A stretch of DNA of 64,000 nt from Candidatus Nomurabacteria bacterium (GCA_016699085.1 CP064958.1:3785-67784), one strand, 5' to 3'; positions 9,554-62,238 are shown, numbered from the stretch's first letter. A program made the numbers and translations. The notes: a model not told the origin generated them from the letters alone.

Positions 9554-9644
9554 AGGTGAAATTGCAATGAAGGTATATAACCATTATATGTCTTAATTGA
9601 CTTTTTAGTAAAATTAAGTATAATGTATATAAACCTACTTCCAT

Positions 9645-10019: not shown

Positions 10020-10039
10020 AAAACAATCAAAACCAACAC

Positions 10040-10072
10040 ATTGAGGATACTCAATGTGTTTTTTTATTAAAA
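10040..10072. terminator. Bidirectional rho-independent terminator
   Basis: acacattgag-gata-ctcaatgtgt 10-bp perfect stem followed by T-run, between convergent genes. Confidence 0.7.
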
Positions 10073-19027: not shown

Positions 19028-19033
19028 GGTGTT

Positions 19034-20260: not shown

Positions 20261-21098
20261 CTAGCTTTTTAATGGCTCCGAGTTGTTGTGAAATGGATTG
20301 CAATTGCTTCTTCACCTCAGCGTCCTTATCTTTTTTCTTCTTTTCATCTATCTTTTGATCCAGGATTAGCTCAATTGAGAGCTTAAGTGGCAAGAAATAC
20401 TGCCGACACTCATCTTCAGAGAGTTCGTGCACGCCCCTACTTAGAATTCCGTATATTGCTTTCATTTCAACAAGCTGGCTTGGAAGATGTTCTTTAAGAA
20501 GAACGATTTTATCCTCCATCCTCGTAGTCTTAAATACATCAGCCGCAACCTTTAGATCTTTAGCTCCACTAAATGTTTCTTGGATAAGATTCTCAAAGAT
20601 TCGACGCAAATAAACAAATGAGCCCGCCCCTGCACCGTGAGCTGCAAGACCAATAGCTTTTTTAAGATTCTTCAAATCCTCTTCAGGAAGAACCTTGTCA
20701 TACTTTTTACCCAATTCAGCAAATTGCAGGTCAGCCAAAGATGGGAATTGGCCAACTTTCATGACTTGCTTGGTCATTTCATTCTTATATACAAAGAAAC
20801 ATAGAGTATCGTTGTCCTTTCTCTTGCACTTAAGAGTCACGACAGCAAAGCCGCTAACCTTTTCAGGTGTGTACTGATTTACATACTCTGTGTCTAGCTT
20901 TTTTATCCACGAAAAACCCACACTGTAGGTAGTGTCGGTGTGATTTTTTGCTGAGTAGGCATCTACGTCTTCAGAAAATAGCTCCAACGGTTTCTCAAGA
21001 TCAGAGTATTCAAATAATTCGTATATTGGGGTTTCAAAGTAAAAATCATGCTTAGTTAATTTCGCCTTTTCTAATTCTGTGTTCGCTTGTTCGGTCAT
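20250..21098 (-). CDS. Hypothetical protein embedded between hsdM and hsdS (possibly DUF4145-like)
   Basis: 282-aa ORF with start/stop overlapping neighbours; C-terminal region GLAAHGAGAGSFVYLRRIFENLI...LSRGVHELSEDE loosely resembles DUF4145 proteins often found in type I R-M loci; assignment by memory only. Confidence 0.55.
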   Translation of the reverse strand: MTEQANTELEKAKLTKHDFYFETPIYELFEYSDLEKPLELFSEDVDAYSAKNHTDTTYSVGFSWIKKLDTEYVNQYTPEKVSGFAVVTLKCKRKDNDTLCFFVYKNEMTKQVMKVGQFPSLADLQFAELGKKYDKVLPEEDLKNLKKAIGLAAHGAGAGSFVYLRRIFENLIQETFSGAKDLKVAADVFKTTRMEDKIVLLKEHLPSQLVEMKAIYGILSRGVHELSEDECRQYFLPLKLSIELILDQKIDEKKKKDKDAEVKKQLQSISQQLGAIKKLDEK

Positions 21099-21099
21099 A

Positions 21100-22614
21100 T
21101 TAGTTGATTCCTAGTTCCTTTAAATATCCGACCATTTGTTTTTCAAGCTTCTGAAGCTCAGGCTCAAGGGAGGCGAGCTCCTTGAGGTTTGCCTTAATAT
21201 CTACAGGCGCCTCTTCCTCGAAGGTATCGACATAGCGAGTGATGTTGAGATTGAATTCGTTTTCTTCTATCTCACTGACGCTGACCTTGCGAGAAAACTT
21301 CTCAATATCCTTCCTCTTCTTGTAGGTATCAAAAATCTTCACAATATTTTCCTCGGTCAGCGTGTTCTGTGCTTTGCCTTGCTTGAACTCCTTTGAGGCT
21401 TCGATAAATAGGACATCTTTCTTCTTTTCATTCGCACCACCTTTCTCGCGTGAACGGTCAATGACCAACACAGCAACTGGAATACCAGTAGTCTGGAAGA
21501 GTCCTGCTGGAAGTCCGATGACGGTATCGATAATATTTTCATTCAAGAGTTGCTCGCGAATCTTTCCTTCAGCACCACCTCGGAAGAGAACACCGTGAGG
21601 GACGATGACCGCGACGCGTCCAGTTTTTGGCTTTGCGGTTTCAACCATATGAGTGATGAATGCAAAGTCGCCTTTATCTTTTGGCGGTACACCACGCCAG
21701 AAGCGATTGTATTTATCTGACTCGGCATGTTCAGCACCCCACTTCTTGAGGGAGAAGGGTGGGTTCGCGACCACTACGTCGAAGTGCATGAGGCTGTCGT
21801 TCTCCACCAAGAGCGGATTGTTGAGCGTGTCGCCCCATTCGATACGAGCAGAGTCTTTGCCGTGGAGGAACATGTTCATACGAGCGAGCTGGTATGTAGA
21901 GCCAGTAGATTCCTGACCGTAGAGCGCATAGTTCTTTGAACCTTGCTTCTCAACTTCCTCACCAGCCAAGAGAAGTAGACCTCCCGAACCGCAGGCAGGG
22001 TCTGAAATTCTGTCACCCTCTTTTGGTTCGGCAAGCATTGCGACGAGATGTGCGACTGAACGTGTGGTGAAAAATTCTCCCGCTTTTTTGCCAGCATCCG
22101 CACCAAAACGCTCAATCATGTACATGTAGGAATTACCGATTATGTCATCGTCTACATCAGAGAGGTCAATCTTTGCAAAGTCCTGAATCAAATTACGGAG
22201 CATCTTGTTGCGCTGTTCAAGTTTGCCAAGGATTGATTCGGAGTTGAAATCGACACTGAACACGCCATCAAGTTTTTCCTTGTTAGCATCTTCAATGCGG
22301 TGAAGTGCTTTGTTTATTTCTTCACCAATATTATCCTCCTCAATCTTGCTGTAGAGATAATCAAAGGACGACTTCGGGGGTAGGTAGAAGCGGTCGAGCT
22401 TCATTTTTTCTTCGATACGCTTTTCGTCGCTTCCGAAACGCTCCTTGTATTCGTCGTGACGCTTTTTGTTGAGGTCACTTATATATTTCAAGAAAAGCAT
22501 CGTCAACGCATAGTCTTTGTAGACACCACCGTCCACGCTACTACGTGAAGAATCAGCCGCCGACCAGAGCGTCTTGTTGAGGTCTTCCTGTGTGTATTTT
22601 TTGTGAGTAGTCAT
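21100..22614 (-). CDS. hsdM: Type I R-M N6-adenine DNA methyltransferase subunit (HsdM)
   Basis: VVANPPFS catalytic motif IV, SAM-binding DPACGSGG motif I, 504 aa. Confidence 0.9.
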   Translation of the reverse strand: MTTHKKYTQEDLNKTLWSAADSSRSSVDGGVYKDYALTMLFLKYISDLNKKRHDEYKERFGSDEKRIEEKMKLDRFYLPPKSSFDYLYSKIEEDNIGEEINKALHRIEDANKEKLDGVFSVDFNSESILGKLEQRNKMLRNLIQDFAKIDLSDVDDDIIGNSYMYMIERFGADAGKKAGEFFTTRSVAHLVAMLAEPKEGDRISDPACGSGGLLLLAGEEVEKQGSKNYALYGQESTGSTYQLARMNMFLHGKDSARIEWGDTLNNPLLVENDSLMHFDVVVANPPFSLKKWGAEHAESDKYNRFWRGVPPKDKGDFAFITHMVETAKPKTGRVAVIVPHGVLFRGGAEGKIREQLLNENIIDTVIGLPAGLFQTTGIPVAVLVIDRSREKGGANEKKKDVLFIEASKEFKQGKAQNTLTEENIVKIFDTYKKRKDIEKFSRKVSVSEIEENEFNLNITRYVDTFEEEAPVDIKANLKELASLEPELQKLEKQMVGYLKELGIN

Positions 22615-22616
22615 GG

Positions 22617-23201
22617 TTATTTGATGGTTAAGCTTTTAAATGTTGCGTTGATAATGTTTTGTTTGATTTCCTTTTCTCTATCAATAATTTTTTGCTGTTC
22701 GCGAATGTTTATAAAAAGATTTATGAGTGCCTCCTGCTTTCGCAGGGGAGGTATCGGGATGTCTATTTTTTCTAACTCTTTACGAGGCAGTGCTCCGATG
22801 TATGAACCTGAAATAATCTGAGTGAGAGACTCCTGACCCTCTTTAGAATTTAAATAGTGTGAAAGATATTCTGGAAGTACTTCTTTCGAGGTGACACGGA
22901 TGACATGGACGGAGGAAGAAGGAATGACGTTCGATTCATCGGCAATATATGTGGTTGACCTGAATGCGCCTGACTTCATGCCACGAGCGACGAGAAGGAC
23001 ATCGTTCTTTTGGAGGTGACCGGAATACCCAGGGGTATCGTGAGATATTCTGGTGAGGGTTTTCGTATTATCAAACGGTACTCCTTGGACGAGGTCTTTT
23101 GCCTGAAATACAAAGAGGTCGCCAGTGTTGTCTGGCTTGATGGCACCTCGGAAGGTGTACCCTGCAATTACCTCTGATACTTCATGCAATTTCATATACA
23201 T
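22617..23201 (-). CDS. Half-size type I R-M specificity subunit (single TRD HsdS)
   Basis: 194 aa; one TRD plus conserved C-terminal helical spacer (LRKQEALINLFINIREQQKII). Confidence 0.65.
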   Translation of the reverse strand: MYMKLHEVSEVIAGYTFRGAIKPDNTGDLFVFQAKDLVQGVPFDNTKTLTRISHDTPGYSGHLQKNDVLLVARGMKSGAFRSTTYIADESNVIPSSSVHVIRVTSKEVLPEYLSHYLNSKEGQESLTQIISGSYIGALPRKELEKIDIPIPPLRKQEALINLFINIREQQKIIDREKEIKQNIINATFKSLTIK

Positions 23202-41153: not shown

Positions 41154-43499
41154 ATGGGAAAAAAGCAATTGAAACTACTAAGCCAAATTGGTATGACCAT
41201 CGTGGCACTTGCAGTCGGCATTGCCATTGCTGCTGGTATTTTTAGTGGTGCATCTATACTAGGGACAACTATCAAATCAACGAGTGTAAAAATACTCGCC
41301 TATATAAACAAGCCTGTTACCCATATTGAACAAGCATTACAAGGGCAACCACTAGCGACAACCCAAGCGCTATTTGATCCCAATGCTCCCATTGAAATCA
41401 AACTCGGCAATGTTAGCGATGGTGATTTTTCTCCGCCAGAATCTGGCAAAGTCATCCGCATTAATCTAGACACGATGCAGCTAGACCAATACGAAGATGG
41501 GACTCTCAAAAATACAATGAAAGTGCTTTCCAAAGGCAAAGTCGGTTCGTATTGGGAAACACCTGGCGGCAACTACACCGTATTAACCAAAGAAGAAAAA
41601 CATCTCTCAAGTATGGGGCAAGTATGGATGCCGTGGAGCATGCAATTTTTCGGCAATTATTTTATCCATGGCTGGCCGTACTATCCAAATGGCAACCCAG
41701 TGACTGACATCGGCTACTCTGGCGGCTGTATTAGACTTTCAAATGATGATGCCAAATCACTCTATAAATGGGCAGACCTTAGGACTGAAGTATCTATTTA
41801 CAATACTAAAGGTACATTACCGAAAGAAGTCGCCTTGAGGTCACCGTACTTTTTAAGGAATCCAAACATCACTCCGCAAGTGAGCGCGGGGGCATTTGTT
41901 GTAGGTGATATCGAATCAGGCGACATACTGCTACAAAAAAACATGAATGCCATTCACCCTATTGCGTCTGTCTCCAAACTCATGACTGCACTCGTTGCGC
42001 TCGATATAGTCCATCAGCGTGCCTTTGCCAAAATTTCAAACCAAGCATTAGCAACAAGCGGACAAAACGCAGGCTTTACCACACATGATCATCTAAAAAA
42101 TTCTGATATCCTCTACCCACTCTTGATGCAATCGTCAAATGATGCAGCAGAAATTTTAGCAGAACAAAATGGCCGCAAAAGCTTTATAATCGCAATGAAT
42201 GAAAAGGTTGGCTCACTCGGACTTTTAGCAACTTCATTTGATGACCCATCCGGACTCTCAGCAAAAAACACCTCGACCGCGCTTGATCTGTTTAAGCTTG
42301 TTCGGCATATCTCCACATTTAAAAACTATATCTTCGATATTACGACGACCAAACAATACTCCACTTCATCACATGCGTGGGTAAGCAGCAATCAATTCTT
42401 AAATGTAAGCGGATATGTCGGTGGCAAAAGTGGCTATACTGATCCAGCCAAACAAACAGGTATATCACTTTTCAAAGTGCCTATTTCAGAATTTGAAACT
42501 CGTACGATTGCGGTAACGCTTCTCCAAAGTGATGATAGGCGCACCGACGTCCTCAAACTCATGGACTACGTCAAAAAGAATATGTACCTAGGCGCACCAC
42601 GCGCTATCAAAGTAGCGACCAATACCGCCACACCAAGCAAAAAAGTATCACTACTTTTTGGTGGTGACATTATGCTTGATCGTGGCGTCAAAACATCTGT
42701 AGAAAAAAATTTTGGTGGCGACTATAATAAACTTTTTGATAATATAGGAAGCATCAAAGATGCTGACATAACATTTGTGAATCTCGAAGGTCCTGTATCA
42801 GATGTGGGCAATAATGTTGGCAGCAAGTATTCATTCCGCATGGATCCAAAAGTACTACCAGCACTCCTTAATGCTGGTATTGATATCGTTTCATTTGCAA
42901 ACAACCACGTCGGCGACTGGAACAAAGCAGCATTCAATGACACACTCGGAAGACTTACAAAAAATGGCATTCTCTACACTGGCGCAGGCAGTAGTAAAGC
43001 TCAAGCAGAAGAGCCTACGATCATTGAGAAGAATGGTCTTAAGGTTGGCTACTTAGGATTCTCTGATGTTGGACCTGATTGGGTCGCAGCAACTGACAAA
43101 GCATCTGGGATACTACTAGCCAGTGATCCAGATTTTGAAGGTATCATACGACGCGCACGCGCAAAGGTAGATATACTCATTGTCTCTGTCCACTGGGGCA
43201 CCGAATACAAAGAGCACACAGCTCATCAATCCTACCTCGCCCACCGTGCGATAGATAATGGCGCCTCACTTGTTATCGGCCATCATCCACATGTCGAACA
43301 AGCAACCGAAACCTACAAAGATGGTCTTATTGTCTACAGTTTAGGAAATTTTATTTTCGACCAGTACTTCTCGCCCGAAACTATGCAAGGTCTCATTGTT
43401 AGTGTTGATTTTGATGGTAATAAAATTACTACTGTTACCAAAAGTACGGTAAAACTCAACACTATGTACCAACCAGAATCGATTACCCCCAAAGAATAA
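41154..43499 (+). CDS. Triple-domain cell-wall enzyme: L,D-transpeptidase (YkuD) + D-Ala-D-Ala carboxypeptidase (S11) + CapA/PgsA-type metallophosphoesterase
   Basis: HGWPYY...YSGGCIRLSNDD (Ldt Cys); ASVSKLMTALVALD (SxxK) and SSN/KSG-type PBP motifs; VSVHWGTEY...IGHHPHV (CapA). Confidence 0.7.
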   Translation: MGKKQLKLLSQIGMTIVALAVGIAIAAGIFSGASILGTTIKSTSVKILAYINKPVTHIEQALQGQPLATTQALFDPNAPIEIKLGNVSDGDFSPPESGKVIRINLDTMQLDQYEDGTLKNTMKVLSKGKVGSYWETPGGNYTVLTKEEKHLSSMGQVWMPWSMQFFGNYFIHGWPYYPNGNPVTDIGYSGGCIRLSNDDAKSLYKWADLRTEVSIYNTKGTLPKEVALRSPYFLRNPNITPQVSAGAFVVGDIESGDILLQKNMNAIHPIASVSKLMTALVALDIVHQRAFAKISNQALATSGQNAGFTTHDHLKNSDILYPLLMQSSNDAAEILAEQNGRKSFIIAMNEKVGSLGLLATSFDDPSGLSAKNTSTALDLFKLVRHISTFKNYIFDITTTKQYSTSSHAWVSSNQFLNVSGYVGGKSGYTDPAKQTGISLFKVPISEFETRTIAVTLLQSDDRRTDVLKLMDYVKKNMYLGAPRAIKVATNTATPSKKVSLLFGGDIMLDRGVKTSVEKNFGGDYNKLFDNIGSIKDADITFVNLEGPVSDVGNNVGSKYSFRMDPKVLPALLNAGIDIVSFANNHVGDWNKAAFNDTLGRLTKNGILYTGAGSSKAQAEEPTIIEKNGLKVGYLGFSDVGPDWVAATDKASGILLASDPDFEGIIRRARAKVDILIVSVHWGTEYKEHTAHQSYLAHRAIDNGASLVIGHHPHVEQATETYKDGLIVYSLGNFIFDQYFSPETMQGLIVSVDFDGNKITTVTKSTVKLNTMYQPESITPKE

Positions 43500-50215: not shown

Positions 50216-51268
50216 TTATTCAGTTCTACACTCTTCTGTATTGCCAACATACTCTCTTAATGCCTTAAAAAAATCATCCAAGGAACCATTATCTTCTCTC
50301 CACAACTTCAATGCTGTGTTTGGTTTTTCTTCTGGCCCTTCAGGAATTCTTACATATTTTCTTTCTGGTGATTTACTACCAGATAAAATCATTACCATAA
50401 CGAAAACTATGAATATCACTATTGCAAAAAAATTCAGTTGCATAGCAATATCACCATTACTTGCAGATGCATTATTAGCAATCAAGAGGAGCATCAAACT
50501 TGCTGCAACTTTTGAAAGTAACCTTAAATAATTGTATGCAGGTACCGGCTCAACTGTCGCCCATTCGTATTGATGGGCAGTTTGCGTAACACCATATGGT
50601 TCTTCTTCTAACATATCTACCATTTCTGTCTTTTGATTTTCTTCTTCAATAGCCAAAGTTGCGACCAATCGAGATTTATCACGTCTTTCTTTCCATATCT
50701 TATAACTAGCTATAAGAAGTACAAAAGCAACAAGAATGCCATATATTTTGTATAATTTCGCATCGCTTTCTCGTACCTGCTCTGCATGCAATTGCATAGC
50801 CTCTCTTTCTTTTTTAGAATACTGGCTGGCAGTATCCTTTGATACCGGAATCATATTCGATATACCATTTGGGACTGGATATGCTTCTTTGAAAGCATCT
50901 TCAGCAGTCGTCTGTGCTGTTTTGATTGCAACACTTTCAGCTGTAACAGCAGAGCTATTTTCATGATTTCCTTGTAGGTATCTATAAACGATTTCACTCG
51001 CAGTTTCCAAAGGTTGATTTAAGTGTTGGATAATCTGATTATTACCGAGGTTGAATTTAAAAATTCTACCCTCCTTAATATGATCCATATCATGAATATT
51101 CTTCATTCCTGGATTAAGGGTAATAGAATTCATGAGAATTTGTCTTGTACTATCCATTAGACTGGATTTCGCGGAAGCGGTTAAGGTACAAATTACAAAC
51201 ATTGTGACAATGAGAAGTATATTTTTCATTTGTTCGATTGTTTTAGAAGTTTGGCTGTATTGTAGCAT
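50216..51268 (-). CDS. Hypothetical secreted/membrane protein
   Basis: Signal peptide plus internal TM helices. Confidence 0.5.
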   Translation of the reverse strand: MLQYSQTSKTIEQMKNILLIVTMFVICTLTASAKSSLMDSTRQILMNSITLNPGMKNIHDMDHIKEGRIFKFNLGNNQIIQHLNQPLETASEIVYRYLQGNHENSSAVTAESVAIKTAQTTAEDAFKEAYPVPNGISNMIPVSKDTASQYSKKEREAMQLHAEQVRESDAKLYKIYGILVAFVLLIASYKIWKERRDKSRLVATLAIEEENQKTEMVDMLEEEPYGVTQTAHQYEWATVEPVPAYNYLRLLSKVAASLMLLLIANNASASNGDIAMQLNFFAIVIFIVFVMVMILSGSKSPERKYVRIPEGPEEKPNTALKLWREDNGSLDDFFKALREYVGNTEECRTE

Positions 51269-52138: not shown

Positions 52139-53794
52139 CTATTCAAATTCGTAGACTATGATCGTTGGTGTATCGAGCACTACCTTGAGTTCCGACGATT
52201 CGGTAATGCGCCAGTATTTCTGCCAGTCAGATTCTTTAAGTAAGACTATGTAGCCCACATTATTCGCCTTGAGTGTTGCTACAGCTTCAGGGGTTGGTGT
52301 TACGCCTTGCACCCAAAGCGTGATGAAGACTTCCCATGGGTCAGTTCGTGCACTATCGAGGTAGGCATTATCGACATTTTTACTTGCAACAACTGAATTG
52401 TTAAAAAACATTATTGCAGGATTCACGATTCGGCGATAATTTGCAAATGAAATATCCATATATTGATGCCACGGCAGTAAGAGCACCGCTTTCGTATCTT
52501 CACCGACAACATACTTTGAATCGATGTAGGTTCTGGCACTATACCAATCTTTCGGATACTCACTCGGTGTAAGTTGACCTTGATACCCCCAAGCCATCGG
52601 ATAAATAGCTACCAAGGTCACAGCAACCAGTCCTGCTACTAGTGTTCGTCGAGCAACTATTTTATTTTTAAAATAAAGTTCCGTCATAACGAGCACGCCG
52701 TATGAAACGAGGAATGCATATGACAATGCGATCAGCCCACTTAGCTTTTCTGTTTCCCGCAATCCTTTAAATCCTGGGACGACCCCCAAGAGCCAATCAA
52801 CAATTGCTTTGGAAAATGCACTACCATAACCAACAGAAACTATAACTACCGGGATAAACGTCACAAAGAGTATAAATGGTAACAGATTGCGATTTTTTTC
52901 TTGCCAAGCACGCCGTATACCAAAGCTTGCAATGAGGATATATAAACCAGGCACAACAAACCAATACGGATTTGTATCTTTAGGCAGTAGTTCATCGCTA
53001 CTCCAAAAGCCGTAGAGTCCAAGCACATTAGGATACACACCGAGCTTCTGATCAGCCGTGGTGGCAAACGCGCGAAAATCTGTTGTCACGATTTCTTGAT
53101 ATGAGGAATCTTTTTTGTGTAATGCCCCATAAAGCCAAAAGCTATTGACGACACCAACACAGACGATGACAGCAAGCACTACTTTGCATGCACGCAAAAC
53201 TTGCGCTCGAGAAAAAAGGTTTCGATTAATGACAACCCACCCTAGCATATACACGAAACCAAACGCGTATGCAATGTACGCAAAGTGAAGTGAGAATATC
53301 GGATAGAGTGAAGCAACAATAGCAAATTTAATAATATGTTTTTTAGTTGGAGCATTGACGAGTGTTACAAGATACGAAATAAAAATCGGCAACATCCCAT
53401 AACCTGCCATAACGAGCCATTGACCTGAGAAAAATCGCTCATAGACCCATGGATTTGCCATGTAGATGATACCCGAGAGTGTAGCGAGAGATCGAGAAAA
53501 GTATTTTTTACTGAGGCGATACATAGCAATACCTGGCAACAGTAAGACCCCAGCAAGCAGTAATTTCGTTGTGAGTGGCGTGCCAATACTTTGTGCTACG
53601 ACGTAGAGAATATATCGAAGCGGATAGTTTGATGGAATAATACCTCCTGTGATAGGTTGCACATGCATATCTGGCGGAAAGCCCATATCGAGGAGAAATA
53701 TATATCCAGGCGCAAACAGTGGCACCATGACTGCCATAACGAAAGCAACGAACAGGATATAGGGTAGATATTTCTCTATGGTTTGCATATGCAT
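52139..53794 (-). CDS. Large polytopic membrane protein (possible GT-C-type glycosyltransferase)
   Basis: 551 aa, more than 10 predicted TM helices; function not assignable from sequence. Confidence 0.55.
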   Translation of the reverse strand: MHMQTIEKYLPYILFVAFVMAVMVPLFAPGYIFLLDMGFPPDMHVQPITGGIIPSNYPLRYILYVVAQSIGTPLTTKLLLAGVLLLPGIAMYRLSKKYFSRSLATLSGIIYMANPWVYERFFSGQWLVMAGYGMLPIFISYLVTLVNAPTKKHIIKFAIVASLYPIFSLHFAYIAYAFGFVYMLGWVVINRNLFSRAQVLRACKVVLAVIVCVGVVNSFWLYGALHKKDSSYQEIVTTDFRAFATTADQKLGVYPNVLGLYGFWSSDELLPKDTNPYWFVVPGLYILIASFGIRRAWQEKNRNLLPFILFVTFIPVVIVSVGYGSAFSKAIVDWLLGVVPGFKGLRETEKLSGLIALSYAFLVSYGVLVMTELYFKNKIVARRTLVAGLVAVTLVAIYPMAWGYQGQLTPSEYPKDWYSARTYIDSKYVVGEDTKAVLLLPWHQYMDISFANYRRIVNPAIMFFNNSVVASKNVDNAYLDSARTDPWEVFITLWVQGVTPTPEAVATLKANNVGYIVLLKESDWQKYWRITESSELKVVLDTPTIIVYEFE

Positions 53795-54174
53795 TATTTT
53801 TTAGCCTTGGCTTCCCTGCTGTATTCCCAGATCTGTTTGATAACACCGATTGATAAGAAATAAAATGCAAAGGTTGCTACTCGCTCGGCCGTTGCATCTG
53901 TTATAACGAACATAAACTTAGTCAAAATCAAAAGTATCGGAATAAGAATGAGACATACCAATGCGCACGTGATAGCAAATCTCGAGTCAATATGCCAGTA
54001 GAATAATGCCGTTGCAAATGCCAAAAATACTCCCCCTTCGAAACTCAAAACTACAGTACCCAAAACAACAACGAGCGCAACTAGGCCTGCACCTATATAG
54101 TCACGCTTGTGTAATGTTGTGAGCCACCCATAGACATCACCAGGAGTTAGTAGATAGTCAGTAAGTCTTGCCAT
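53794..54174 (-). CDS. Small 4-TM membrane protein (GtrA-like?)
   Basis: 126 aa, overlaps downstream gene start by 1 nt (operon). Confidence 0.45.
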   Translation of the reverse strand: MARLTDYLLTPGDVYGWLTTLHKRDYIGAGLVALVVVLGTVVLSFEGGVFLAFATALFYWHIDSRFAITCALVCLILIPILLILTKFMFVITDATAERVATFAFYFLSIGVIKQIWEYSREAKAKK

Positions 54175-54268
54175 AATGTATACAGCCTAGCACGAAAACT
54201 ATCGAGTCATAAGCACTTTACAAAAATGGTGATGAGAGTACAGTACAGAGGAACCTAAACCTCTTTAT

Positions 54269-54784
54269 ATGGGAATCTACGGAGAAATTAAGGCAAGACC
54301 AGAAAAATACACCGTAAACACTATGGACGTTGGAGATATAGCATATTTAGATCCAAGTGAAATCATCATTACAAGAAAAGCTATTATTGTTGATTTATTA
54401 TCGTATGTGCTATTTCCTGAAGATGTAACAAAAAAAGAAATTACAACTCTGATACAAATTAAACGTATTGGAAGTGGAATAACTGAAAAGGACTTCATGC
54501 TCTACTTTCCAAAAAAATTAAATTTTGTTTTTATTATAAGAGGAATGGGTGTATATTTTGAATCTCTGGACGAAAAAATGTTTAACGTTATATTCTATAC
54601 ATTCCACCTTGACTTAAGTTACTGGCCCCGAGATGAAGAGGAGAAAATCGCCCCATCCATAAAAGAAGTAGATCTTAAACAAGCATTGAATCATGCAGTG
54701 GAAACTGAAAACTATGAGGAAGCTATTCGACTTAGAGAGGAAATAAGAAAGAAAAAGACACAAAATAAAAACCCTAAAAGCTGA
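54269..54784 (+). CDS. UVR-domain-containing protein
   Basis: C-terminal ALNHAVETENYEEAIRLREEIRKK resembles UvrB/UvrC UVR motif. Confidence 0.5.
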   Translation: MGIYGEIKARPEKYTVNTMDVGDIAYLDPSEIIITRKAIIVDLLSYVLFPEDVTKKEITTLIQIKRIGSGITEKDFMLYFPKKLNFVFIIRGMGVYFESLDEKMFNVIFYTFHLDLSYWPRDEEEKIAPSIKEVDLKQALNHAVETENYEEAIRLREEIRKKKTQNKNPKS

Positions 54785-54866
54785 TCGCAAGATCAGTTTT
54801 TTCTTTTGACAAATACATAGTTTAGGGTAGGATGATACTGTTTTTCGTTCATTTAAAACTATACCC

Positions 54867-55631
54867 ATGATACACATACCTGCTTATGTCATAGCCATAA
54901 TGCCCAATAAAACCAGAAGGTTATTCATTAATGAAAAAGTCGCAGCACAATGTGGTGCTCGTGTTATTACCGAAAGTCCAAGCAGTACAATCTTTGAAAC
55001 CAAGGCAGAATTGCGCGAAGCATTGAAACTCGAAGCCCGTAGAAATACTATCGAAGCTTTTATGAAAACCGTGGGTCACTCAAAAGATAGAGGAAGAATT
55101 GTGACGGTTCTGTCCTATACACCGGAAGAATTCTCAACATACCTCACAGCAAAAGGTATCAAAGTAGGTACTGCCGGTACATTGAAAAATCTGATGGTAA
55201 CCAAGGGTTACTTTACGTTCTTTGACTTCCTAGAGCGAATAAGTTCACAGAAGCTCGCCAGCATGATCGGTTACGGAGATACATATATTCATACTATTCG
55301 ACAAGTTATTGAAGAAGAAAAAATTCCATGGGAATTAATATTCAAAAAAAGGAAACCGAGGAAAATGAGTAACGAAAAAATTAAAGCTCTACTTAAAAAG
55401 CCGATAGCTGATCTTATCGAACTGGGGCTTGATCATAGAATATGCCTACGCATGCAACGTACTACTGGCGCGAAAAATCTGAGGGAGTTTATTACTAGCA
55501 AACAAGACTACGAAAACAAGGGCGAAGAAATCCATAGTTTTGGCAAAAAAGCTTTGTTAGAATTGGAAAATTTTTTGGAAGACAGAGGTATACCACGAGA
55601 TATTGACCTCAATAAATACTTTTCTGAATAA
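54867..55631 (+). CDS. Hypothetical protein with helix-hairpin-helix-like C-terminus
   Basis: 254-aa ORF. Confidence 0.45.
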   Translation: MIHIPAYVIAIMPNKTRRLFINEKVAAQCGARVITESPSSTIFETKAELREALKLEARRNTIEAFMKTVGHSKDRGRIVTVLSYTPEEFSTYLTAKGIKVGTAGTLKNLMVTKGYFTFFDFLERISSQKLASMIGYGDTYIHTIRQVIEEEKIPWELIFKKRKPRKMSNEKIKALLKKPIADLIELGLDHRICLRMQRTTGAKNLREFITSKQDYENKGEEIHSFGKKALLELENFLEDRGIPRDIDLNKYFSE

Positions 55632-55708
55632 GTTTATTTTTACTTTACACCAGCGAACCTGGTGTATTTTTATTTTTATTTTTTAGTACCATATCGTTTC
55701 TCATACAA

Positions 55709-55760
55709 TTTGCTCCTATAATCTATATATACGGCCGTATATATAGATTATAGGAGCAAA
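55709..55760. repeat. Perfect 52-bp palindrome
   Basis: tttgctcctataatctatatatacgg|ccgtatatatagattataggagcaaa, zero mismatches, no spacer. Confidence 0.9.
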
Positions 55761-55806
55761 AAGTGAAGAATTAGAGGATTAGGGGTTAAAGTGGTCGATG
55801 GTATCA

Positions 55807-55835
55807 TTGACTTTTCTATTAATTTATGCTATGCT
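55807..55835 (+). promoter_or_regulatory. Sigma-70-type promoter P0 (TTGACT-N17-TATGCT)
   Basis: Same architecture as P1-P3 downstream. Confidence 0.5.
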
Positions 55836-55872
55836 GTTTGCATTCATTGTTCATTGATAAAAAAGTATACAC

Positions 55873-56241
55873 ATGCAAAAGATAACCTTAAAGTCATTTA
55901 GAGATTCCAATCTCGGGTTAATCATCTGGGTTTTGGGATTAGTGTTTGGAGAAATATTAAAATTTATATTCTCCCCTTTTGTGTTTATGTTTTCACCCTC
56001 TAGGAAACTTGCATACAAGCTTGCCTGCTCAAAAAAATTCGTATACTGGCGTAAAATCACCAGAGATGGCAGTGTTATCACTGTAAGTGCCCATCATGGG
56101 CATGCTGAAAAACCTGAATTCGTGCAAATATATGAATTTGATACATCAAATAATACATACGAGGAATACAGAAATACCGACAACGGTAAACAGAACCACA
56201 TAAAAGGAACGCTGAAAGTAGGAATAAAAAAGTTCACCTAA
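55873..56241 (+). CDS. Hypothetical small membrane protein
   Basis: 122 aa, N-terminal TM helices. Confidence 0.5.
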   Translation: MQKITLKSFRDSNLGLIIWVLGLVFGEILKFIFSPFVFMFSPSRKLAYKLACSKKFVYWRKITRDGSVITVSAHHGHAEKPEFVQIYEFDTSNNTYEEYRNTDNGKQNHIKGTLKVGIKKFT

Positions 56242-56253
56242 AAACAAACCCAG

Positions 56254-56556
56254 ATGCAAAACATTACCGAGTTCGAAAATTTCCTTTTCGCTAATCTATT
56301 GGGTTACGTAACGAGAACTGCTACCTCAAAAAAGGAGGCAGATAATTTTTTTCAAACGTTTAAGAAAGACCTCAACAAGCAGGTCTGGGATCTGCTCGAA
56401 GAGCATGATGTAGCTGTGTTTGTACAAATCAACGCAGCAATTGAGGAACTCAGGGATTACTCACTGGGTTTTGGTGATAAAGAAAAGTGGTGTCTGCGTT
56501 TTGTAAATAATCTCAAGACGCATACGCAAAGTGAAACATTTGAGTATAGTAACTAA
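56254..56556 (+). CDS. Hypothetical small protein
   Basis: 100 aa, 12 nt after previous gene. Confidence 0.5.
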   Translation: MQNITEFENFLFANLLGYVTRTATSKKEADNFFQTFKKDLNKQVWDLLEEHDVAVFVQINAAIEELRDYSLGFGDKEKWCLRFVNNLKTHTQSETFEYSN

Positions 56557-56585
56557 TATCATATTGCCAATATGGCCATAAGCAA

Positions 56586-56615
56586 AAGCGATCGCACGAT
56601 CGCTTTTTATTTTTC
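56586..56615 (+). terminator. Rho-independent terminator
   Basis: aagcgatcg-cac-gatcgctt + tttttattttt. Confidence 0.65.
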
Positions 56616-56630
56616 GATCCCAATTTTTGG

Positions 56631-56668
56631 AAAAATAAAAAGCATCTACCTAGTAGATGCTTTTGTTT
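56631..56668. terminator. Bidirectional terminator
   Basis: agcatctac-cta-gtagatgct flanked by A-run and T-run. Confidence 0.65.
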
Positions 56669-56682
56669 GTATCATTTCTTCT

Positions 56683-56784
56683 CTAATCACTTGCCATGAT
56701 AGCAAACATGAGGAACAGGAAACCGAGGAAGTAACAACCTGTGAAGAATAAGACAAAAGCTACAACAAAAAAGAAAAGTGCCAT
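56683..56784 (-). CDS. 33-aa hydrophobic peptide MALFFFVVAFVLFFTGCYFLGFLFLMFAIMASD with its own promoter and terminator
   Basis: Minus-strand ATG..TAG; upstream TTGACT-N17-TATAAA promoter (about 56838..56866 minus strand); ends at bidirectional terminator. Confidence 0.35.
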   Translation of the reverse strand: MALFFFVVAFVLFFTGCYFLGFLFLMFAIMASD

Positions 56785-56896
56785 AGTCTGAAAATTTAGG
56801 TTAAGAAATTTTTTATTTTGTTTGATATATTTATAGCATAAATATATAGTAAAGTCAATACAAGCCTTCTATCTTAGTATTTAAAATATAGATTAT

Positions 56897-56924
56897 TTGA
56901 CTTTTTGATAATTCACTATATAAT
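56897..56924 (+). promoter_or_regulatory. Sigma-70-type promoter P1 (TTGACT-N16-TATAAT)
   Basis: tattTGACTttttgataattcactaTATAAT 15 nt upstream of ATG 56940. Confidence 0.6.
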
Positions 56925-56939
56925 CCAGAAAACGACAAA

Positions 56940-57383
56940 ATGAAAAATAGAGTACTCCCCGCAAGGCCATACAGACCAGACACACTCGGATCTATGGGCA
57001 AGGCCAGCAGCATGATCGTAAGGCAATACCAATTCCCCCATGAATACCAAGAGCATGAAAAGCTCGTATTTACAGATCATGATCGGTGCATACAAGCCAA
57101 CTACGATCAAGCAATGGCATGTATCAGAAAGCATACACAAAGAGGAGATTTAGGATTAGAATCTTGGTTCTTAAAATCCAACGATGAGAAGATACTGACT
57201 TTCCTAATAGAATTTCTCGATGTCAAAGATGGAACAATGTGGACAGGATACCGCATCAGAGGATCAGTTAATCAAAGCGATGGTGGTGCAATCTGGAGTT
57301 TGGAACTTTTTGCAAAAGCACCAGGCAGTAGCACAGCGGTATATACAGGCACAAAAGACGTACCAAATGTATATGACTATTAA
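56940..57383 (+). CDS. Hypothetical protein
   Basis: 147 aa. Confidence 0.5.
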   Translation: MKNRVLPARPYRPDTLGSMGKASSMIVRQYQFPHEYQEHEKLVFTDHDRCIQANYDQAMACIRKHTQRGDLGLESWFLKSNDEKILTFLIEFLDVKDGTMWTGYRIRGSVNQSDGGAIWSLELFAKAPGSSTAVYTGTKDVPNVYDY

Positions 57384-57404
57384 TTAAAAATGTGCACAAC
57401 AAAA

Positions 57405-57432
57405 ACAGCTCTCCCAGAGCTGTTTATTTTTT
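57405..57432 (+). terminator. Rho-independent terminator
   Basis: acagctct-ccc-agagctgt + T-run. Confidence 0.65.
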
Positions 57433-57479
57433 ACTTTACTCGTATGTGCCAATGTGTTACTCTTGGCAAAATTACGTAC

Positions 57480-57794
57480 ATGGAACAAGCAACCACGAAA
57501 AATACTAGTCAGAAAAAATTTACTTTTTTCGAGAGTTTACTATTACCTTTTTGGAAACGAGATGCTTACAAAAAAGCCAAGGAACTAATCACTACTCCCA
57601 ACACGAAGCAAATTGACATAATCCGAGCAATTAGAAAACTTTCTGATTACCACATATATGACAAAAAAGGCAATGTGGTAGGAAATCCCTACTACATAGA
57701 GAAAGTTATGGATGTAGTTGAGGAACACAGATATGATGTATTGGATCGAATAGCGAGAAACAATCTTGCTGAATTCGAAACAGATTTTGCTTAA
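57480..57794 (+). CDS. Hypothetical protein
   Basis: Start taken at MEQATTKN after terminator; track start 57390 lies inside the terminator. Confidence 0.45.
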   Translation: MEQATTKNTSQKKFTFFESLLLPFWKRDAYKKAKELITTPNTKQIDIIRAIRKLSDYHIYDKKGNVVGNPYYIEKVMDVVEEHRYDVLDRIARNNLAEFETDFA

Positions 57795-57838
57795 TGCACT
57801 GCATACAATGCAAGTACAATCTTATTCGAAATCTACAG

Positions 57839-57867
57839 AACGCTGACCATATGGGCAGCGTTTTTTA
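57839..57867 (+). terminator. Rho-independent terminator
   Basis: aacgctg-accatatggg-cagcgtt + tttttt. Confidence 0.65.
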
Positions 57868-57889
57868 TCTTGCCATTTATTTGAGTATA

Positions 57890-57917
57890 TTGACTTTTTG
57901 ATAATTCTATATATAAT
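57890..57917 (+). promoter_or_regulatory. Sigma-70-type promoter P2 (TTGACT-N16-TATAAT), near-identical to P1
   Basis: tatatTGACTttttgataattctataTATAAT. Confidence 0.6.
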
Positions 57918-57932
57918 ATAGAAAAATAAAAA

Positions 57933-58238
57933 ATGTTCGACTGTTCTAAGAATATATACAAAAAGTTAACAATTACACTTTTCAACGGTGTGGAAATATC
58001 TGGCTATATCGGAAAATCTTCCAAAGATAGCGCATTTTTACCGCGAGTATTTCAGACATACCTAAAGGAAAAATTTGGCGTACTAGAACATGAGTGCACA
58101 GCAATGATCATTGCTGGTGACCCAATAAAGATGAGAGTGTTCCCCGAGCGGACACCATGGGCATGGCGTAGAATGGCGGAAAAGGCTGCCAAGAAAGTCA
58201 AGTGGGAACAACTCCCCAAGGTATTTGATTCCAACTAA
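57933..58238 (+). CDS. Hypothetical protein
   Basis: 101 aa. Confidence 0.5.
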   Translation: MFDCSKNIYKKLTITLFNGVEISGYIGKSSKDSAFLPRVFQTYLKEKFGVLEHECTAMIIAGDPIKMRVFPERTPWAWRRMAEKAAKKVKWEQLPKVFDSN

Positions 58239-58283
58239 GATTTTATTTAACGAAACCGACCTACTGACAAAACAGTACGGTCA

Positions 58284-58350
58284 CGTGGGAGCCAAAGGAG
58301 GCTCCCACAATATGGATAATCCTTACCGAAATTTGGTAAGGATTTTTTAT
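58284..58350 (+). terminator. Tandem hairpin terminator
   Basis: gtgggagcc-aaaggag-gctcccac and ataatccttacc-gaaatttg-gtaaggatt + T-run. Confidence 0.6.
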
Positions 58351-58394
58351 TTTCCTACTTCCCTACTTTTGACTTTCAACTTTATTTGAAGATA

Positions 58395-58423
58395 TTGACT
58401 TTTAATAAAATAAATGTTAATAT
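58395..58423 (+). promoter_or_regulatory. Sigma-70-type promoter P3 (TTGACT-N17-TAATAT)
   Basis: gatatTGACTtttaataaaataaatgtTAATAT. Confidence 0.55.
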
Positions 58424-58443
58424 ATACAAAAAAGAAAACTGTT

Positions 58444-58935
58444 ATGAAAATACACTTCCCGATTACTTCTGCTGAATTTGTTGTTTTACATGCACAAATG
58501 AAACAAAAAAGAGGGAGAAATCCTTCGCTTAGTTTTGCAGGAATCAAAAATCCAAAGAGAGCGCTACAGTTTGCAAAATCGGTTGCATCTTTCAATACAA
58601 AACCTGCAGCCCCTCCTCCTGGAGATAAGGTGATCATACTGCCGAACCAAGAAGAGATGCTCGAACGCCTCATGGCAGTTGATGACAACCCGCATACCGT
58701 GCGGGAGTTCTATCCAAAACTACTCAAGTACGCAGGACAGAGAAAAGTTGCCGCGGGCATAGTCATGATGGCTGAACTTGCTTTGTTTGACTACACGAAA
58801 GGCATGCCTGACTTCATGTTTTCAGTAATGAATATGAGGATGCCTGAATACATAGACGCTCTTACCGATGACAAAGTAGTCGCAACTGAAGCTAAGAAAA
58901 TTCTTAAAGAGGCATTAGTAGCCACAACTGCATGA
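58444..58935 (+). CDS. Hypothetical protein
   Basis: Start taken at MKIHFP downstream of P3; track start 58414 lies inside the -10 element. Confidence 0.5.
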   Translation: MKIHFPITSAEFVVLHAQMKQKRGRNPSLSFAGIKNPKRALQFAKSVASFNTKPAAPPPGDKVIILPNQEEMLERLMAVDDNPHTVREFYPKLLKYAGQRKVAAGIVMMAELALFDYTKGMPDFMFSVMNMRMPEYIDALTDDKVVATEAKKILKEALVATTA

Positions 58936-58963
58936 TCCGTTTGAAAGTCTGTTAATTCACAAA

Positions 58964-58992
58964 ACGCTGTACCTTATGGTCAGCGTTTTTTA
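58964..58992. terminator. Terminator shared by convergent genes
   Basis: acgctg-taccttatggt-cagcgt + T-run. Confidence 0.6.
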
Positions 58993-61900
58993 TTTTTCTA
59001 CTTCCTTCTTTTTGAACCATCTCTTCACTTGTAACTTTTTACTTGTCACTAGTAGATACCCTACACAACCAAGCAGTGTTACCCCCGAGATTAGCACTCC
59101 AATCAAAAAATATTTTTGTGGTTTATATTCTAAAACAATATTTACTAATCCCGTATCTTCGATCCAAAATCCATTAATTGTAGAATAGATTTGCTCAGAT
59201 TTATATATATTTTTATCTATAGTAGCGACCCAGGAAGGATCAAAGCTCTCAGTAAATGAAAGGAGGAACGGTTTATTTGTTTCAATTATAAGTTTGTATT
59301 TTGTTGGGCCTATTTTTTTTACTTCTATAATATTTGTTTCAGAGTCATTTAATGTTTCTAATAATTTAGAGGTTGCCTTATTGGATTCATTTAAATTAAT
59401 AACTTTAAATTTATCTAGTATTTGATTATAAAATTCATTCTCACTATTAAATTCTGCTTCGGTTGCAAATAACACCTCCCCGATTGCATTGAAACCCATA
59501 TTATTTTTAATTCCAAACAAATGCTCACCTTTATCTAATTCGAAAGGGATTTTCTGTGACCAGGAAAAATTATTCGAGTAATCTTTAGTTTGTATTGTTG
59601 TTAAATAATTATCATCAATATAGACATCGAAATTACCTCCATTTTCGTTTTTTAGATATTTAATAAAAAATAAGTAACTTTCATCCTTATCTAAAACAAA
59701 AGGTAATTGCATCATATTTGGTTCACGATATTCATTTAGATTGTATAAGGAAAAATCCTTCATCTCAATTTTAACTGAAGAAGTGATATCAATATCATCT
59801 TCATACCAAATTTGAATTTGTATAAAAGATGTATCTACATTTGTTGGAGTAATATAAATTGATTGTTTTTCCCAGTTAGATGTTCCATTTTCTATAAATT
59901 TTGCAATTTCTCCAAATTCACTACCTATATGTGTTTCATTAGCGTCATATTCAAATAATTTTACATGCACAGAAGAGGCATTCGAAGTTTTTATACTGAA
60001 ATTAAATTTTGAGTATTCATTATATTGCATCGGAATCAAGGGAGATTTAATTGTTTTCCATCCTTGTGATGGAGCCTCAAGTTTGACTATAAATCCTCCA
60101 TTAATTTCATTCATGTACAACTTTTGCTCCTTAGTTAAATTAGTTTCCCATCCTATAGATATATCTTCTGAATCTTTAACAGACAGAAATTTAGTGTCGT
60201 TTGATAAATTAAATTTTGGTAATATCGACGGAGCACTTGTGTAAAAAAAACCTTTTCTATTTGTAAAATCAGTATAATCAATCCAAAGATCTTTTTGCTG
60301 GTTTTTTAAAATAGTTAACCACGATCCAATCTTTTGTGTAAACTTCCAACCAATTACTTTATCAATACTGTCTGGTGGCAACACAACATCTATTGTTGAT
60401 AAAGGTGAAAAGATTTTTTTATTCATCAATAAATCTTCTTTATCGAAAGTATCTATAAACTGAAATTGATTATCACCGTGTAGATTTTTAACATATGGGC
60501 AGTTAATATTGTCAGGTATTAAAATTTGATTAGAAAAAATTGTGCAGTTATTGACAGTAAATAGATCAGCAGTTATGCCGTTTAGTTTAAAAAGATACCA
60601 ACCATCCTTTTCATAAATTAAAGACATATTTTTCTTCATACTATCGAGAGCTTCATTATCGATAGAATAATATCTATCGTTATGGAAAACTACATAACCC
60701 ACGCCAAGAACTGACAGGTAGTTATAATAATCATTTCTATTAAAAAGATTCGCTGCATACGGGATATCATATAAATTTTCAACAATATAATTGTAATTCC
60801 AATTTGTATTGTATGTAGGATTAATTGATGATTTCATGTCAAATGGTCCGATCATGTGACCTTCACTCCACGAAGTTTTAATTTCTCCATACCTTGGATA
60901 CCAAAGGACCTTGTATGAGTCTGGCTTTTCCTTAAGTAAGTCTGTGATTTCATAATAAGGACTAGGAATTTTTATTGGATTCATAGAATTAATATTCGAA
61001 TCAATGATCCCGAATATACTAGATCCAATTATAATTAGACTAAAAATAACACCTAAAAAAGTATTTGCTCTAATATTTACTAACTTTACAAATTTATACT
61101 TATAAAGGAGGGAGTTAGCACTTAGGGCAAATAATATACTTAGGAAAAAAACTTGATACAACTGAAATTTCAACGGAGATCTAAAAATCCATCCTATTGG
61201 GGTCGAATCAATGAACCACCAATAAAAACCCCCTGCTAAAGATTTTTGGCCAAAGGCTAGTAAAGTACAAACTAAAAAACCAATTGAGGCGAACCAGATT
61301 ATTTTATTTTGTTTTTTAAAATAAAGTATGAAGAAACTCAAAAATAACACACCATATAAAGAAAAATTATGAATTACTTTATATAATGCATTGTCAGGAG
61401 TAGTTTTTATATACGTAAATCTATCCCTTTCAGTAACCAATATTCTAGCTAAGTTATTATCAGACACTATTTCGAATGTATTTTTTTCAACATTAGATGA
61501 ATGACCTAAATCGACACTATTTTTCAATCCGGATGATATATACGGTAAAATAAACCAAAGAAAGAGTGCCCCGAATAAAATTGCGATTAAACTAAAATTC
61601 CTAAATTCACGAATTATATTGGATTTCAAGACTAACACAGAGAATACAAAAGAAACGATCAAATTCATTATTAAAATAAAAGGATGACCAACTGAAAGTA
61701 ATAGAGTCAAAGCAAATAAAATAATAAATTTTTTGTAATTTTTTTCTGAGTATCTAAGAATCAAAAATAGCAAAAGTGGAAGTACCCCAAGTGAAAGAAT
61801 AAGCGATATTTCCCAGAAAAATTGAAGAGGTGTGGGGCTATATGCAAAAAAAAGTGAACCCAGTATTAGAGGAACAAAAGAAAAATTTGAATATTTAATT

Positions 61901-62238
61901 TTTAACCTATTAAACAATTCTTTAAGGAAAATAAACATGAAAAAACTAACACAGGCATAGGTGATTAAAGGCATTAATTTAAGAATAACTTCTACATTTA
62001 AGCCCAAATAAGCCATAAGTATATACGGCAATCTTGGAACAAGTCTAATTAACTGCTCAAGATTTGATTGAGATGTTAAATCATTCCAAAGTGGGAAATG
62101 ATATCTTATGAAACTCTCTTTAAAAATTGGGAAATTAAAATCCCTTTGAATAATTACACCGTTTTGTAGAAAAAGATAACCAAAAACTAAGATTGCGATC
62201 AGAGTAAATAAAAAAAAGTAATTTCTATTTTTAAACAT
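58990..62238 (-). CDS. Very large polytopic membrane protein with big extracytoplasmic domain (YfhO/GT-C-like?)
   Basis: 1082 aa, about 12 N-terminal TM helices, C-terminal TM; adjacent to polysaccharide-modifying genes. Confidence 0.6.
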   Translation of the reverse strand: MFKNRNYFFLFTLIAILVFGYLFLQNGVIIQRDFNFPIFKESFIRYHFPLWNDLTSQSNLEQLIRLVPRLPYILMAYLGLNVEVILKLMPLITYACVSFFMFIFLKELFNRLKIKYSNFSFVPLILGSLFFAYSPTPLQFFWEISLILSLGVLPLLLFLILRYSEKNYKKFIILFALTLLLSVGHPFILIMNLIVSFVFSVLVLKSNIIREFRNFSLIAILFGALFLWFILPYISSGLKNSVDLGHSSNVEKNTFEIVSDNNLARILVTERDRFTYIKTTPDNALYKVIHNFSLYGVLFLSFFILYFKKQNKIIWFASIGFLVCTLLAFGQKSLAGGFYWWFIDSTPIGWIFRSPLKFQLYQVFFLSILFALSANSLLYKYKFVKLVNIRANTFLGVIFSLIIIGSSIFGIIDSNINSMNPIKIPSPYYEITDLLKEKPDSYKVLWYPRYGEIKTSWSEGHMIGPFDMKSSINPTYNTNWNYNYIVENLYDIPYAANLFNRNDYYNYLSVLGVGYVVFHNDRYYSIDNEALDSMKKNMSLIYEKDGWYLFKLNGITADLFTVNNCTIFSNQILIPDNINCPYVKNLHGDNQFQFIDTFDKEDLLMNKKIFSPLSTIDVVLPPDSIDKVIGWKFTQKIGSWLTILKNQQKDLWIDYTDFTNRKGFFYTSAPSILPKFNLSNDTKFLSVKDSEDISIGWETNLTKEQKLYMNEINGGFIVKLEAPSQGWKTIKSPLIPMQYNEYSKFNFSIKTSNASSVHVKLFEYDANETHIGSEFGEIAKFIENGTSNWEKQSIYITPTNVDTSFIQIQIWYEDDIDITSSVKIEMKDFSLYNLNEYREPNMMQLPFVLDKDESYLFFIKYLKNENGGNFDVYIDDNYLTTIQTKDYSNNFSWSQKIPFELDKGEHLFGIKNNMGFNAIGEVLFATEAEFNSENEFYNQILDKFKVINLNESNKATSKLLETLNDSETNIIEVKKIGPTKYKLIIETNKPFLLSFTESFDPSWVATIDKNIYKSEQIYSTINGFWIEDTGLVNIVLEYKPQKYFLIGVLISGVTLLGCVGYLLVTSKKLQVKRWFKKKEVEK

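Follow-up and report, generated by a model that had tools for sequence, protein, structure and literature searches.

What kind of locus is a run of small ORFan genes in which much the same promoters and terminators recur from one gene to the next, and how does such a locus change between strains? The question is raised by a stretch of 64,000 nucleotides (hereafter, the window; GCA_016699085.1, CP064958.1:3785-67784), in which a reading made from the sequence alone had singled out positions 55800-58995 as a cluster of small, separately transcribed genes resembling phage morons or accessory modules. We find that this region makes up the right two thirds of an accessory islet, hyperplastic and 4.8 kb in length, in a chromosome of the candidate phyla radiation (CPR). 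The junctions at which genes are gained, lost and replaced in the islet are the repeated promoters and terminators themselves, a point absent from the earlier reading. The islet is probably an array of autonomous promoter-ORFan-terminator cassettes in which the shared regulatory sequences double as recombination substrates.

An accessory islet in an envelope operon

The window is part of a bacterial chromosome that encodes rpoB/rpoC, a type I restriction enzyme, RNase R and SMC. The host genome is closed (808,221 bp), and the islet proteins carry the accessions QQR50349-QQR50357 and the locus tags IPF86_00290-00330. The source is labelled Ca. Nomurabacteria at NCBI, and the nearest species representative found (L006) is labelled Candidatus Saccharibacteria; this label and the size of the genome identify the host as a small-genome CPR/Patescibacteria organism. 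The islet, its flanking genes and its nine genes are the following (aa, amino acids).

54175-58989, plus strand: accessory islet with genes A-I, 4.8 kb; the flanking genes abut or overlap in L006/L008; GC content below that of the core
53794-54174, minus strand: left flank, 126-aa membrane gene
58990-62238, minus strand: right flank, 1082-aa membrane gene
54269-54784, plus strand: gene A, 171 aa, C-terminal UVR motif (Pfam UVR, E 3e-5)
54867-55631, plus strand: gene B, 254 aa, basic, helical
55873-56241, plus strand: gene C, 122 aa, N-terminal membrane anchor
56254-56556, plus strand: gene D, 100 aa, acidic
56683-56784, minus strand: gene E, very hydrophobic, Phe-rich peptide of 33 aa, unannotated in the NCBI record, with its own promoter and terminator
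56940-57383, plus strand: gene F, 147 aa, conserved family of ~150-aa proteins
57480-57794, plus strand: gene G, 104 aa (134 aa in the annotation, which starts it at 57390)
57933-58238, plus strand: gene H, 101 aa, codons 39-94 forming a divergent tract relative to strain L001
58444-58935, plus strand: gene I, 163 aa, only 3 distant homologs

The flanks of the islet are conserved cellular membrane and polysaccharide genes of an envelope operon that runs on the opposite strand. The sister species L006 (the same organism was found again in L008) is collinear with the window from RNase III to a 551-aa gene; there, the ~1000-aa membrane gene directly joins the counterpart of the 126-aa gene, which encodes 143 aa and is 58% identical, with overlapping stop and start codons, and nothing matching A-I is present between the two flanking genes. 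A metagenome scan with a flank protein returned the same sister species only. Thus, the islet is an insertion, and the envelope operon that it interrupts is continuous in the sister species. The accessory, moron-like and modular character that the sequence-only reading had proposed for this DNA, as opposed to a housekeeping one, is borne out by the absence of the islet from the sister species, where its genes have no conserved, syntenic housekeeping homologs, by its variable content, by its low GC (0.38 in islet coding sequences and 0.31 in islet intergenic regions, compared to 0.42 in the core), and by the sharing of family F with a temperate phage.

Promoters, terminators and transcription units

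The predicted regulatory elements of the islet are as follows.

54217-54244, plus strand: candidate promoter of A (promoter scan)
54776-54801, plus strand: terminator of A (terminator scan)
54806-54833, plus strand: promoter of B, TTGACA-16-TAGGAT (promoter scan)
55646-55666, plus strand: terminator of B
55807-55835, plus strand: promoter P1, TTGACT-17-TATGCT with TG, predicted to drive C-D via a conserved 37-nt leader
56584-56607, plus strand: terminator of C-D
56638-56664, both strands: bidirectional terminator common to the convergent C-D and E units, detected on both strands
56831-56859, minus strand: promoter P5 of E, TTGACT-17-TATAAA with TG, inverted 89% copy of P1
56892-56924, plus strand: promoter P2, TTGACT-16-TATAAT at 56897, 33-bp unit, two copies in L001 around cassette X
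57403-57425, plus strand: terminator of F
57840-57866, plus strand: terminator of G
57890-57917, plus strand: promoter P3, TTGACT-16-TATAAT, mosaic of P4-like and P2-like parts
58258-58350, plus strand: 3' element of H, three hairpins, the terminator being the last (58318-58344 and T-run); fold z-score -8.1
58395-58423, plus strand: promoter P4, TTGACT-17-TAATAT with TG (promoter scan)
58961-58989 and T-run, plus strand: terminator of I, abutting the stop codon of the opposite-strand 1082-aa gene

The promoter scan recovered all four plus-strand sigma-70-type promoters that had been claimed at 55807, 56897, 57890 and 58395, as well as the minus-strand promoter of the 33-aa open reading frame (ORF), which reads ATTGACTTTACTATATATTTATGCTATAAA from 56859 to 56831 and is an 89% identical inverted copy of 55806-55832. 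A promoter sequence shared between two copies, TTGACTTTTTGATAATTC..TATATAAT, is also present, but the true pair consists of the second and third promoters (56897 and 57890), not of the first and second as originally stated. These two are identical at 39/46 positions as far as the ATG, and each matches the consensus at 11/12 positions. By sequence, the five promoter copies form two sub-families, and the DNA upstream of them is AT-rich. The longest exact repeat within the islet is 18 nt, compared to a mean of 12.3 and a maximum of 17 in 300 Markov shuffles. Several elements are mosaic: P3 resembles P4 in its upstream half (91%) and P2 in its core, the terminator hairpin of I is 82% like that of G, and the spacer downstream of the I terminator is 82% like that of H.

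Terminators, too, are concentrated, with ~8 in the 4.8 kb of the islet as against ~0.2 per kb elsewhere in the window. The hairpin plus T-run reported after each gene is present after eight of the nine (A, B, D, E, F, G, H and I), and is missing after C; predicted hairpins with T-runs also lie 22-140 nt upstream of P1, P3 and P4. Given that C lacks a terminator and is separated by only 12 nt, with no hairpin, from D, the two genes appear to form a bicistronic unit. The annotated 134-aa ORF of G passes through the F terminator, so that 57480 is the likely start of this gene, which has no convincing promoter and is probably transcribed by read-through from F. One gene per transcription unit is therefore an overstatement, with ~7 units for the nine genes. 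The left border of the module is also to be moved, from 55800 to 54175, to take in A and B. The cassette leaders are short and A-rich and have no obvious Shine-Dalgarno sequence. Between the B terminator and P1 there is a perfect, spacerless 52-bp palindrome (55709-55760), unique in the window, which sits in a 121-bp segment (55676-55800) missing from the more distant relative L009; Rfam returned only sub-threshold, spurious miRNA-precursor matches for it.

Cassette content of closely related strains

The variability of the module among relatives, which the sequence-only reading had suggested checking, is found between strains that are ~95-99% identical. Strains L001 and L002, which match the window at 99.5% identity on the left, carry an extra cassette X that consists of a promoter, a 133-aa ORFan and a terminator. 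The 33-bp segment ATTATTTGACTTTTTGATAATTCACTATATAAT is found on both sides of cassette X in these strains and as a single copy in the window. Three short-read contigs start 3 nt before the P2 repeat, the pattern expected where an assembly stops at a repeat that has more than one possible neighbour. The contigs L010-L012 are ~95% identical to the window in the right flank and lack G, H and I, and other small genes occur there. Gene F of these contigs (87% nucleotide identity) is preceded by the same promoter as in the window and is joined directly to the three-hairpin 3' element of H (92% identical in L011). The stems of this 3' element stay paired in the other strain type through compensatory and wobble changes.

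Exchange also affects part of a gene. Genes F and G of L001 are 100% identical to those of the window, whereas H shows 79% amino acid identity, with dS (synonymous divergence) of ~1.0 and dN/dS (nonsynonymous to synonymous ratio) of 0.21 in codons 39-94. This combination marks the tract as an imported allele, and it rules out both diversifying selection and hypermutation of H by a system of the diversity-generating retroelement type.

Conservation of regulatory and coding DNA

Conservation is far higher in the promoters and terminators than in the coding DNA. L009 has the order A-B-C with proteins that are 46%, 64% and 53% identical to those of the window; the coding sequences are 57-68% identical, whereas the A-B intergenic region, comprising terminator, promoter and leader, shows 92.7% identity. 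The B terminator and the P1 promoter and leader are likewise almost unchanged in L009. Comparison of F with its counterpart in L021 gives the same picture: positions -50 to -1 are 94% identical, as against 78% for the coding sequence and 60% for third codon positions (dS ~1). The homology between the window and L021 spans the promoter, F and the terminator and ends ~50 nt upstream of the ATG, which indicates that promoter, gene and terminator move as one block. Gene F is under purifying selection (dN/dS 0.10-0.15), as are the islet genes in general.

The two promoter types differ in their distribution outside the islet. The P1-type string ATTGACTTTT-N5-AATTTATGCTAT(AAT) is found without mismatch in 9 unrelated phage contigs of IMG/VR (L025-L033), each occurrence directly following a terminator hairpin, and represents a recurrent form of strong TRTG/extended -10 promoter of low-GC phages. 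The P2-type string occurs in 2-3 copies in the islet, non-consensus positions of the spacer included, and has no match in IMG/VR or in the metagenome collection, both of which apparently do not contain the source samples.

Family F in other lineages and in a phage

Family F comprises 21 homologs. Two other lineages (L013 and L015) encode F in small ORFan islets located elsewhere on the chromosome, near holB, dus, serS and dprA, again with its own promoter and terminator. In both lineages, F is flanked by direct repeats of the promoter region that are lineage-specific (in L015, 30 nt with 87% identity; in L013, 81 nt with 79% identity). A further homolog is encoded at 3631-4125 in the temperate-phage contig L018 (JGI 3300078411 Ga0668521_000219), which also encodes an integrase, Mom and NinB. 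Here, F lacks its own promoter and has a GIY-YIG homing endonuclease gene on one side and a Lar-like restriction-alleviation gene on the other. Families F and B were not found in IMG/VR. Gene F occurs without G in L011, L013, L015 and L021, and G is missing from L010/L011.

Products of the islet genes

The islet proteins are ORFans that form 90%-identity clusters of 1-4 sequences each, and no paralogy was detected among them. The statement that the small proteins have no recognisable domains holds for all proteins within the originally noted range (Pfam, PHROG, PADLOC and NCBIfam); the UVR motif of A lies just outside that range. In a tblastn search of 50,697 phage records, none of the islet proteins had a match, and no toxin, antitoxin or defence family was matched below E 0.004 in PADLOC, Pfam or NCBIfam. 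Accordingly, none of the effector classes that had been proposed, such as toxin/immunity or anti-defence proteins, could be assigned. Secretion is unlikely for most of the products; because hydrophobic segments of the membrane type are found only in C and in the 33-aa peptide, the majority are probably cytoplasmic.

A search of 1.84 billion representative proteins found no more than 3 homologs of protein B. The best PDB sequence matches of B are the C-terminal domains of RpoA, which are non-significant (E 0.34), and the structure model of B (pLDDT, the predicted local distance difference test score, of 78) yields local, non-significant matches to NusA-AR, Rad51-NTD and RuvA. B probably has two helix-hairpin-helix-type domains in tandem, the C-terminal one resembling the alpha-CTD of RpoA. 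The model of F has a pLDDT of 92, no fold match in the PDB and a single, uncharacterised match in a viral structure library (E 5e-4). The E peptide (Kyte-Doolittle hydropathy 2.5) is identical in L001, and no antisense promoter facing E was found in the promoter scan. The E ORF and its terminator also gave a sub-threshold match to the Rfam Phe leader (56633-56752, minus strand; 27 bits against a cut-off of 55), which was rejected as a probable compositional artefact because no gene follows downstream.

Proposed shuffling of cassettes at shared regulatory sequences

These observations are best accounted for by the following scheme. In each cassette, a near-consensus sigma-70 promoter (TTGACT and, 16-17 nt further on, TATAAT or a TG-extended -10) and a short A-rich leader would precede one or two ORFan genes, which an intrinsic terminator would follow. 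The promoter and terminator segments recur in different cassettes and could thereby act as portable homology, and recombination at the repeats would delete, insert or replace whole cassettes while leaving expression unbroken. Such recombination would presumably be homologous (RecA-type) and not site-specific. The cargo might function in conflict or interaction at the strain level, the sole indication of such a role being the phage association of family F.

Several points weigh against this reading. There is only one clean case of two repeat copies versus one, namely cassette X, and the other rearrangement junctions lie near repeats and not provably within them. The contigs L010-L012 are short, the left end of that islet type being outside them. 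Metagenome-assembled contigs may misjoin at repeats; misassembly is countered by the closed genome of the window and by the independent agreement of L001 and L002. Repeats of 18-33 bp are near the lower size limit for efficient homologous recombination. Part of the likeness between P1 and P5 may be convergent, because the P1-type string is found, exact, in nine unrelated phage contigs. Furthermore, near-consensus promoters are spread over the window, including a perfect TTGACA-17-TATAAT at 39109 on the minus strand. The promoters described as strong in the sequence-only reading are indeed near-consensus, but since similar sites occur throughout the window, their quality is ordinary for this organism; what is unusual in the islet is the density of the promoters and their identity at non-consensus positions. 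Finally, the promoters and terminators are predictions, and their activity in vivo is presumed from their sequences.

Some of the same observations would fit an ordinary strain-variable islet, in which the promoters look alike owing to a long strong-promoter consensus of the organism or to local duplication, and in which genes turn over by unrelated means with no recombination role for the repeats. Near-consensus promoters are, after all, common across the window, and the P1-type string has its exact phage matches; moreover, a lone plus-strand module at 9597-10070 (ATTGACTTTTT...TATAAT, a 124-aa ORFan and a terminator), located among minus-strand genes, is unchanged in the three contigs that have it. 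We nevertheless consider this explanation unlikely, given that the P2-type string is repeated in the islet yet unmatched in the viral and metagenome collections, that the cassette X indel is bounded exactly by the P2-type repeat, that promoters and terminators are mosaic, and that the same architecture recurs with other repeat sequences in L013 and L015. The derivation of the islet from a decayed prophage or another integrated element, its early or accessory region having been left in the envelope operon with the cassettes as former morons or early genes, is improbable. The low GC, the opposite strand and the clean insertion are compatible with it, as are the F homolog in a temperate-phage contig with integrase, Mom, NinB, GIY-YIG endonuclease and Lar and the one structural relative of F in the viral structure library (E 5e-4). 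However, neither an integrase nor structural or replication genes nor att-like terminal repeats were found in the islet (Pfam, PHROG and repeat scan), its proteins have no PHROG match and no tblastn match among the phage records, families F and B were not found in IMG/VR, and the phage copy of F lacks its own promoter. In any case, such an origin would be compatible with the shuffling mechanism.

More doubtful still is the interpretation of the islet as a set of toxin-antitoxin or defence/anti-defence pairs (C-D, F-G, and E as a type I toxin), whose persistence and turnover would be explained by addiction. The genes are small and in places paired, the 33-aa peptide is very hydrophobic, the phage F homolog adjoins the Lar-like gene, and a type I restriction-modification system is encoded elsewhere in the window; but there is no PADLOC, Pfam or NCBIfam match to the respective families, F repeatedly occurs without G, and E has no antisense promoter facing it. 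A site-specific, integron-like system, in which the promoter-like repeat would be the recombination site of an unrecognised recombinase, possibly the DNA-binding-like B, is hardly plausible. Like integron arrays, the islet consists of tandem small, mostly ORFan cassettes that vary between strains in number and order; identical repeats lie at cassette boundaries, a 52-bp perfect palindrome is adjacent to B, and B, which is conserved together with A at the left end of the islet, is modelled as a helix-hairpin-helix-like DNA binder. Unlike integron arrays, the islet has no IntI integrase, no attC/attI sites and no common Pc promoter. No recombinase domain was detected in any islet protein or beside the islet, the 3' hairpins of the cassettes are T-run terminators of unrelated sequence, and the cassettes start with promoters of their own, which integron cassettes do not bring. 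In addition, the boundaries are not uniform, the right junction of F varying by strain, and the repeat sequences differ between lineages. Altogether, the integron, toxin-antitoxin and defence readings receive no positive support.

Relationship to phage regulatory cassettes and morons

The closest parallel to the proposed shuffling of cassettes is provided by the PeSL (promoter-early stem-loop) regulatory cassettes of T4-type phages, where they lie in hyperplastic regions (Arbiol et al., 2010, PMC2839356; Comeau et al., 2014, PMC4122927). In both cases, repeated composite motifs combine a strong sigma-70-type promoter, preceded by AT-rich DNA, with a terminator hairpin (in the islet, these are predicted); the motifs are concentrated in a variable region, directly upstream of ORFans, so that each gene is insulated; and genes are swapped at the motifs. 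Close relatives also differ in the same manner, by an ORFan between two copies of the motif versus a single copy: ORFan192 is flanked by two PeSLs in RB49, where phi1 has a single PeSL (PMC2839356), and cassette X lies between two copies of the 33-bp repeat. By contrast, PeSLs are early promoters in T4-type phage genomes, whereas the islet resides in an 808-kb bacterial CPR chromosome with rpoB/rpoC and contains no phage genes; its motifs have no sequence similarity to phage PeSLs, and the hairpin does not overlap with the promoter but is adjacent to it, at a distance of 22-140 nt. Excised mini-circles that carry a single hybrid motif are a further trait of the phage PeSL system.

The islet also resembles phage morons of the HK97/HK022 type, which possess a promoter and a terminator of their own, deviant GC, and the status of extra DNA compared to related genomes (PMC3594210); the islet shares the latter two features and has its own predicted promoters and terminators. 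Morons, however, sit inside (pro)phage genomes between conserved phage genes, whereas the islet is flanked by cellular envelope genes, with no prophage, and includes several tandem cassettes with common regulatory repeats. Given that both PeSLs and morons are defined by residence in phage genomes, the islet belongs to neither class, although by analogy it appears to work like both.

Neighbouring genes

Some observations concern the surroundings of the islet. In strain L001 (12050-15312), the 1082-aa membrane gene on the right of the islet (58990-62238) is broken into two parts of 664 aa and 352 aa. The final ~20 codons of this gene cannot be aligned with the L011 strain type (L011 1493-1560), which indicates that the variation of the islet extends into the 3' end of the flanking gene. 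To the left, a 350-aa ORFan without family match is encoded at 50216-51268, where the sister species L006/L008 has ~160 bp instead of ~1.6 kb; two near-consensus promoters are located back to back, at 51287 (minus strand) and 51318 (plus strand), at the upstream end of this ORFan. The 781-aa protein encoded at 41154-43499 combines YkuD L,D-transpeptidase, S11 D-Ala-D-Ala carboxypeptidase and PGA_cap domains, an unusual fusion of cell-wall enzymes. The type I restriction-modification locus (15839-23201) includes HsdR of 1062 aa and same-strand neighbours and thus represents at least one defence system outside the islet.

Implications

CPR bacteria have minimal genomes with few regulators, and the acquisition and expression of accessory genes in these organisms are poorly understood. 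At the locus described here, genes are added, removed and replaced within one species as ready-to-express units at repeated regulatory sequences. Shuffling at such sequences is documented in T4-type phages and, to our knowledge, not in any bacterial chromosome. It is conceivable, if rather unlikely, that mobile, lineage-specific promoter/terminator cassettes serve Saccharibacteria-like CPR bacteria as a general means of capturing, expressing and exchanging ORFans, some of them shared with the phages of these bacteria, at a few chromosomal hot spots, as a cellular counterpart of PeSLs; under this conjecture, the strict conservation of promoters and leaders would come from a dedicated factor, for example the helix-hairpin-helix protein B, beyond the contacts made by sigma-70. 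Gene F represents a conserved protein family, with a confident but unmatched predicted fold, that is common to CPR chromosomes and a temperate phage. The short promoters and terminators, which remain nearly unchanged under selection while the coding DNA is saturated, are candidate parts for new genetic tools for Saccharibacteria.

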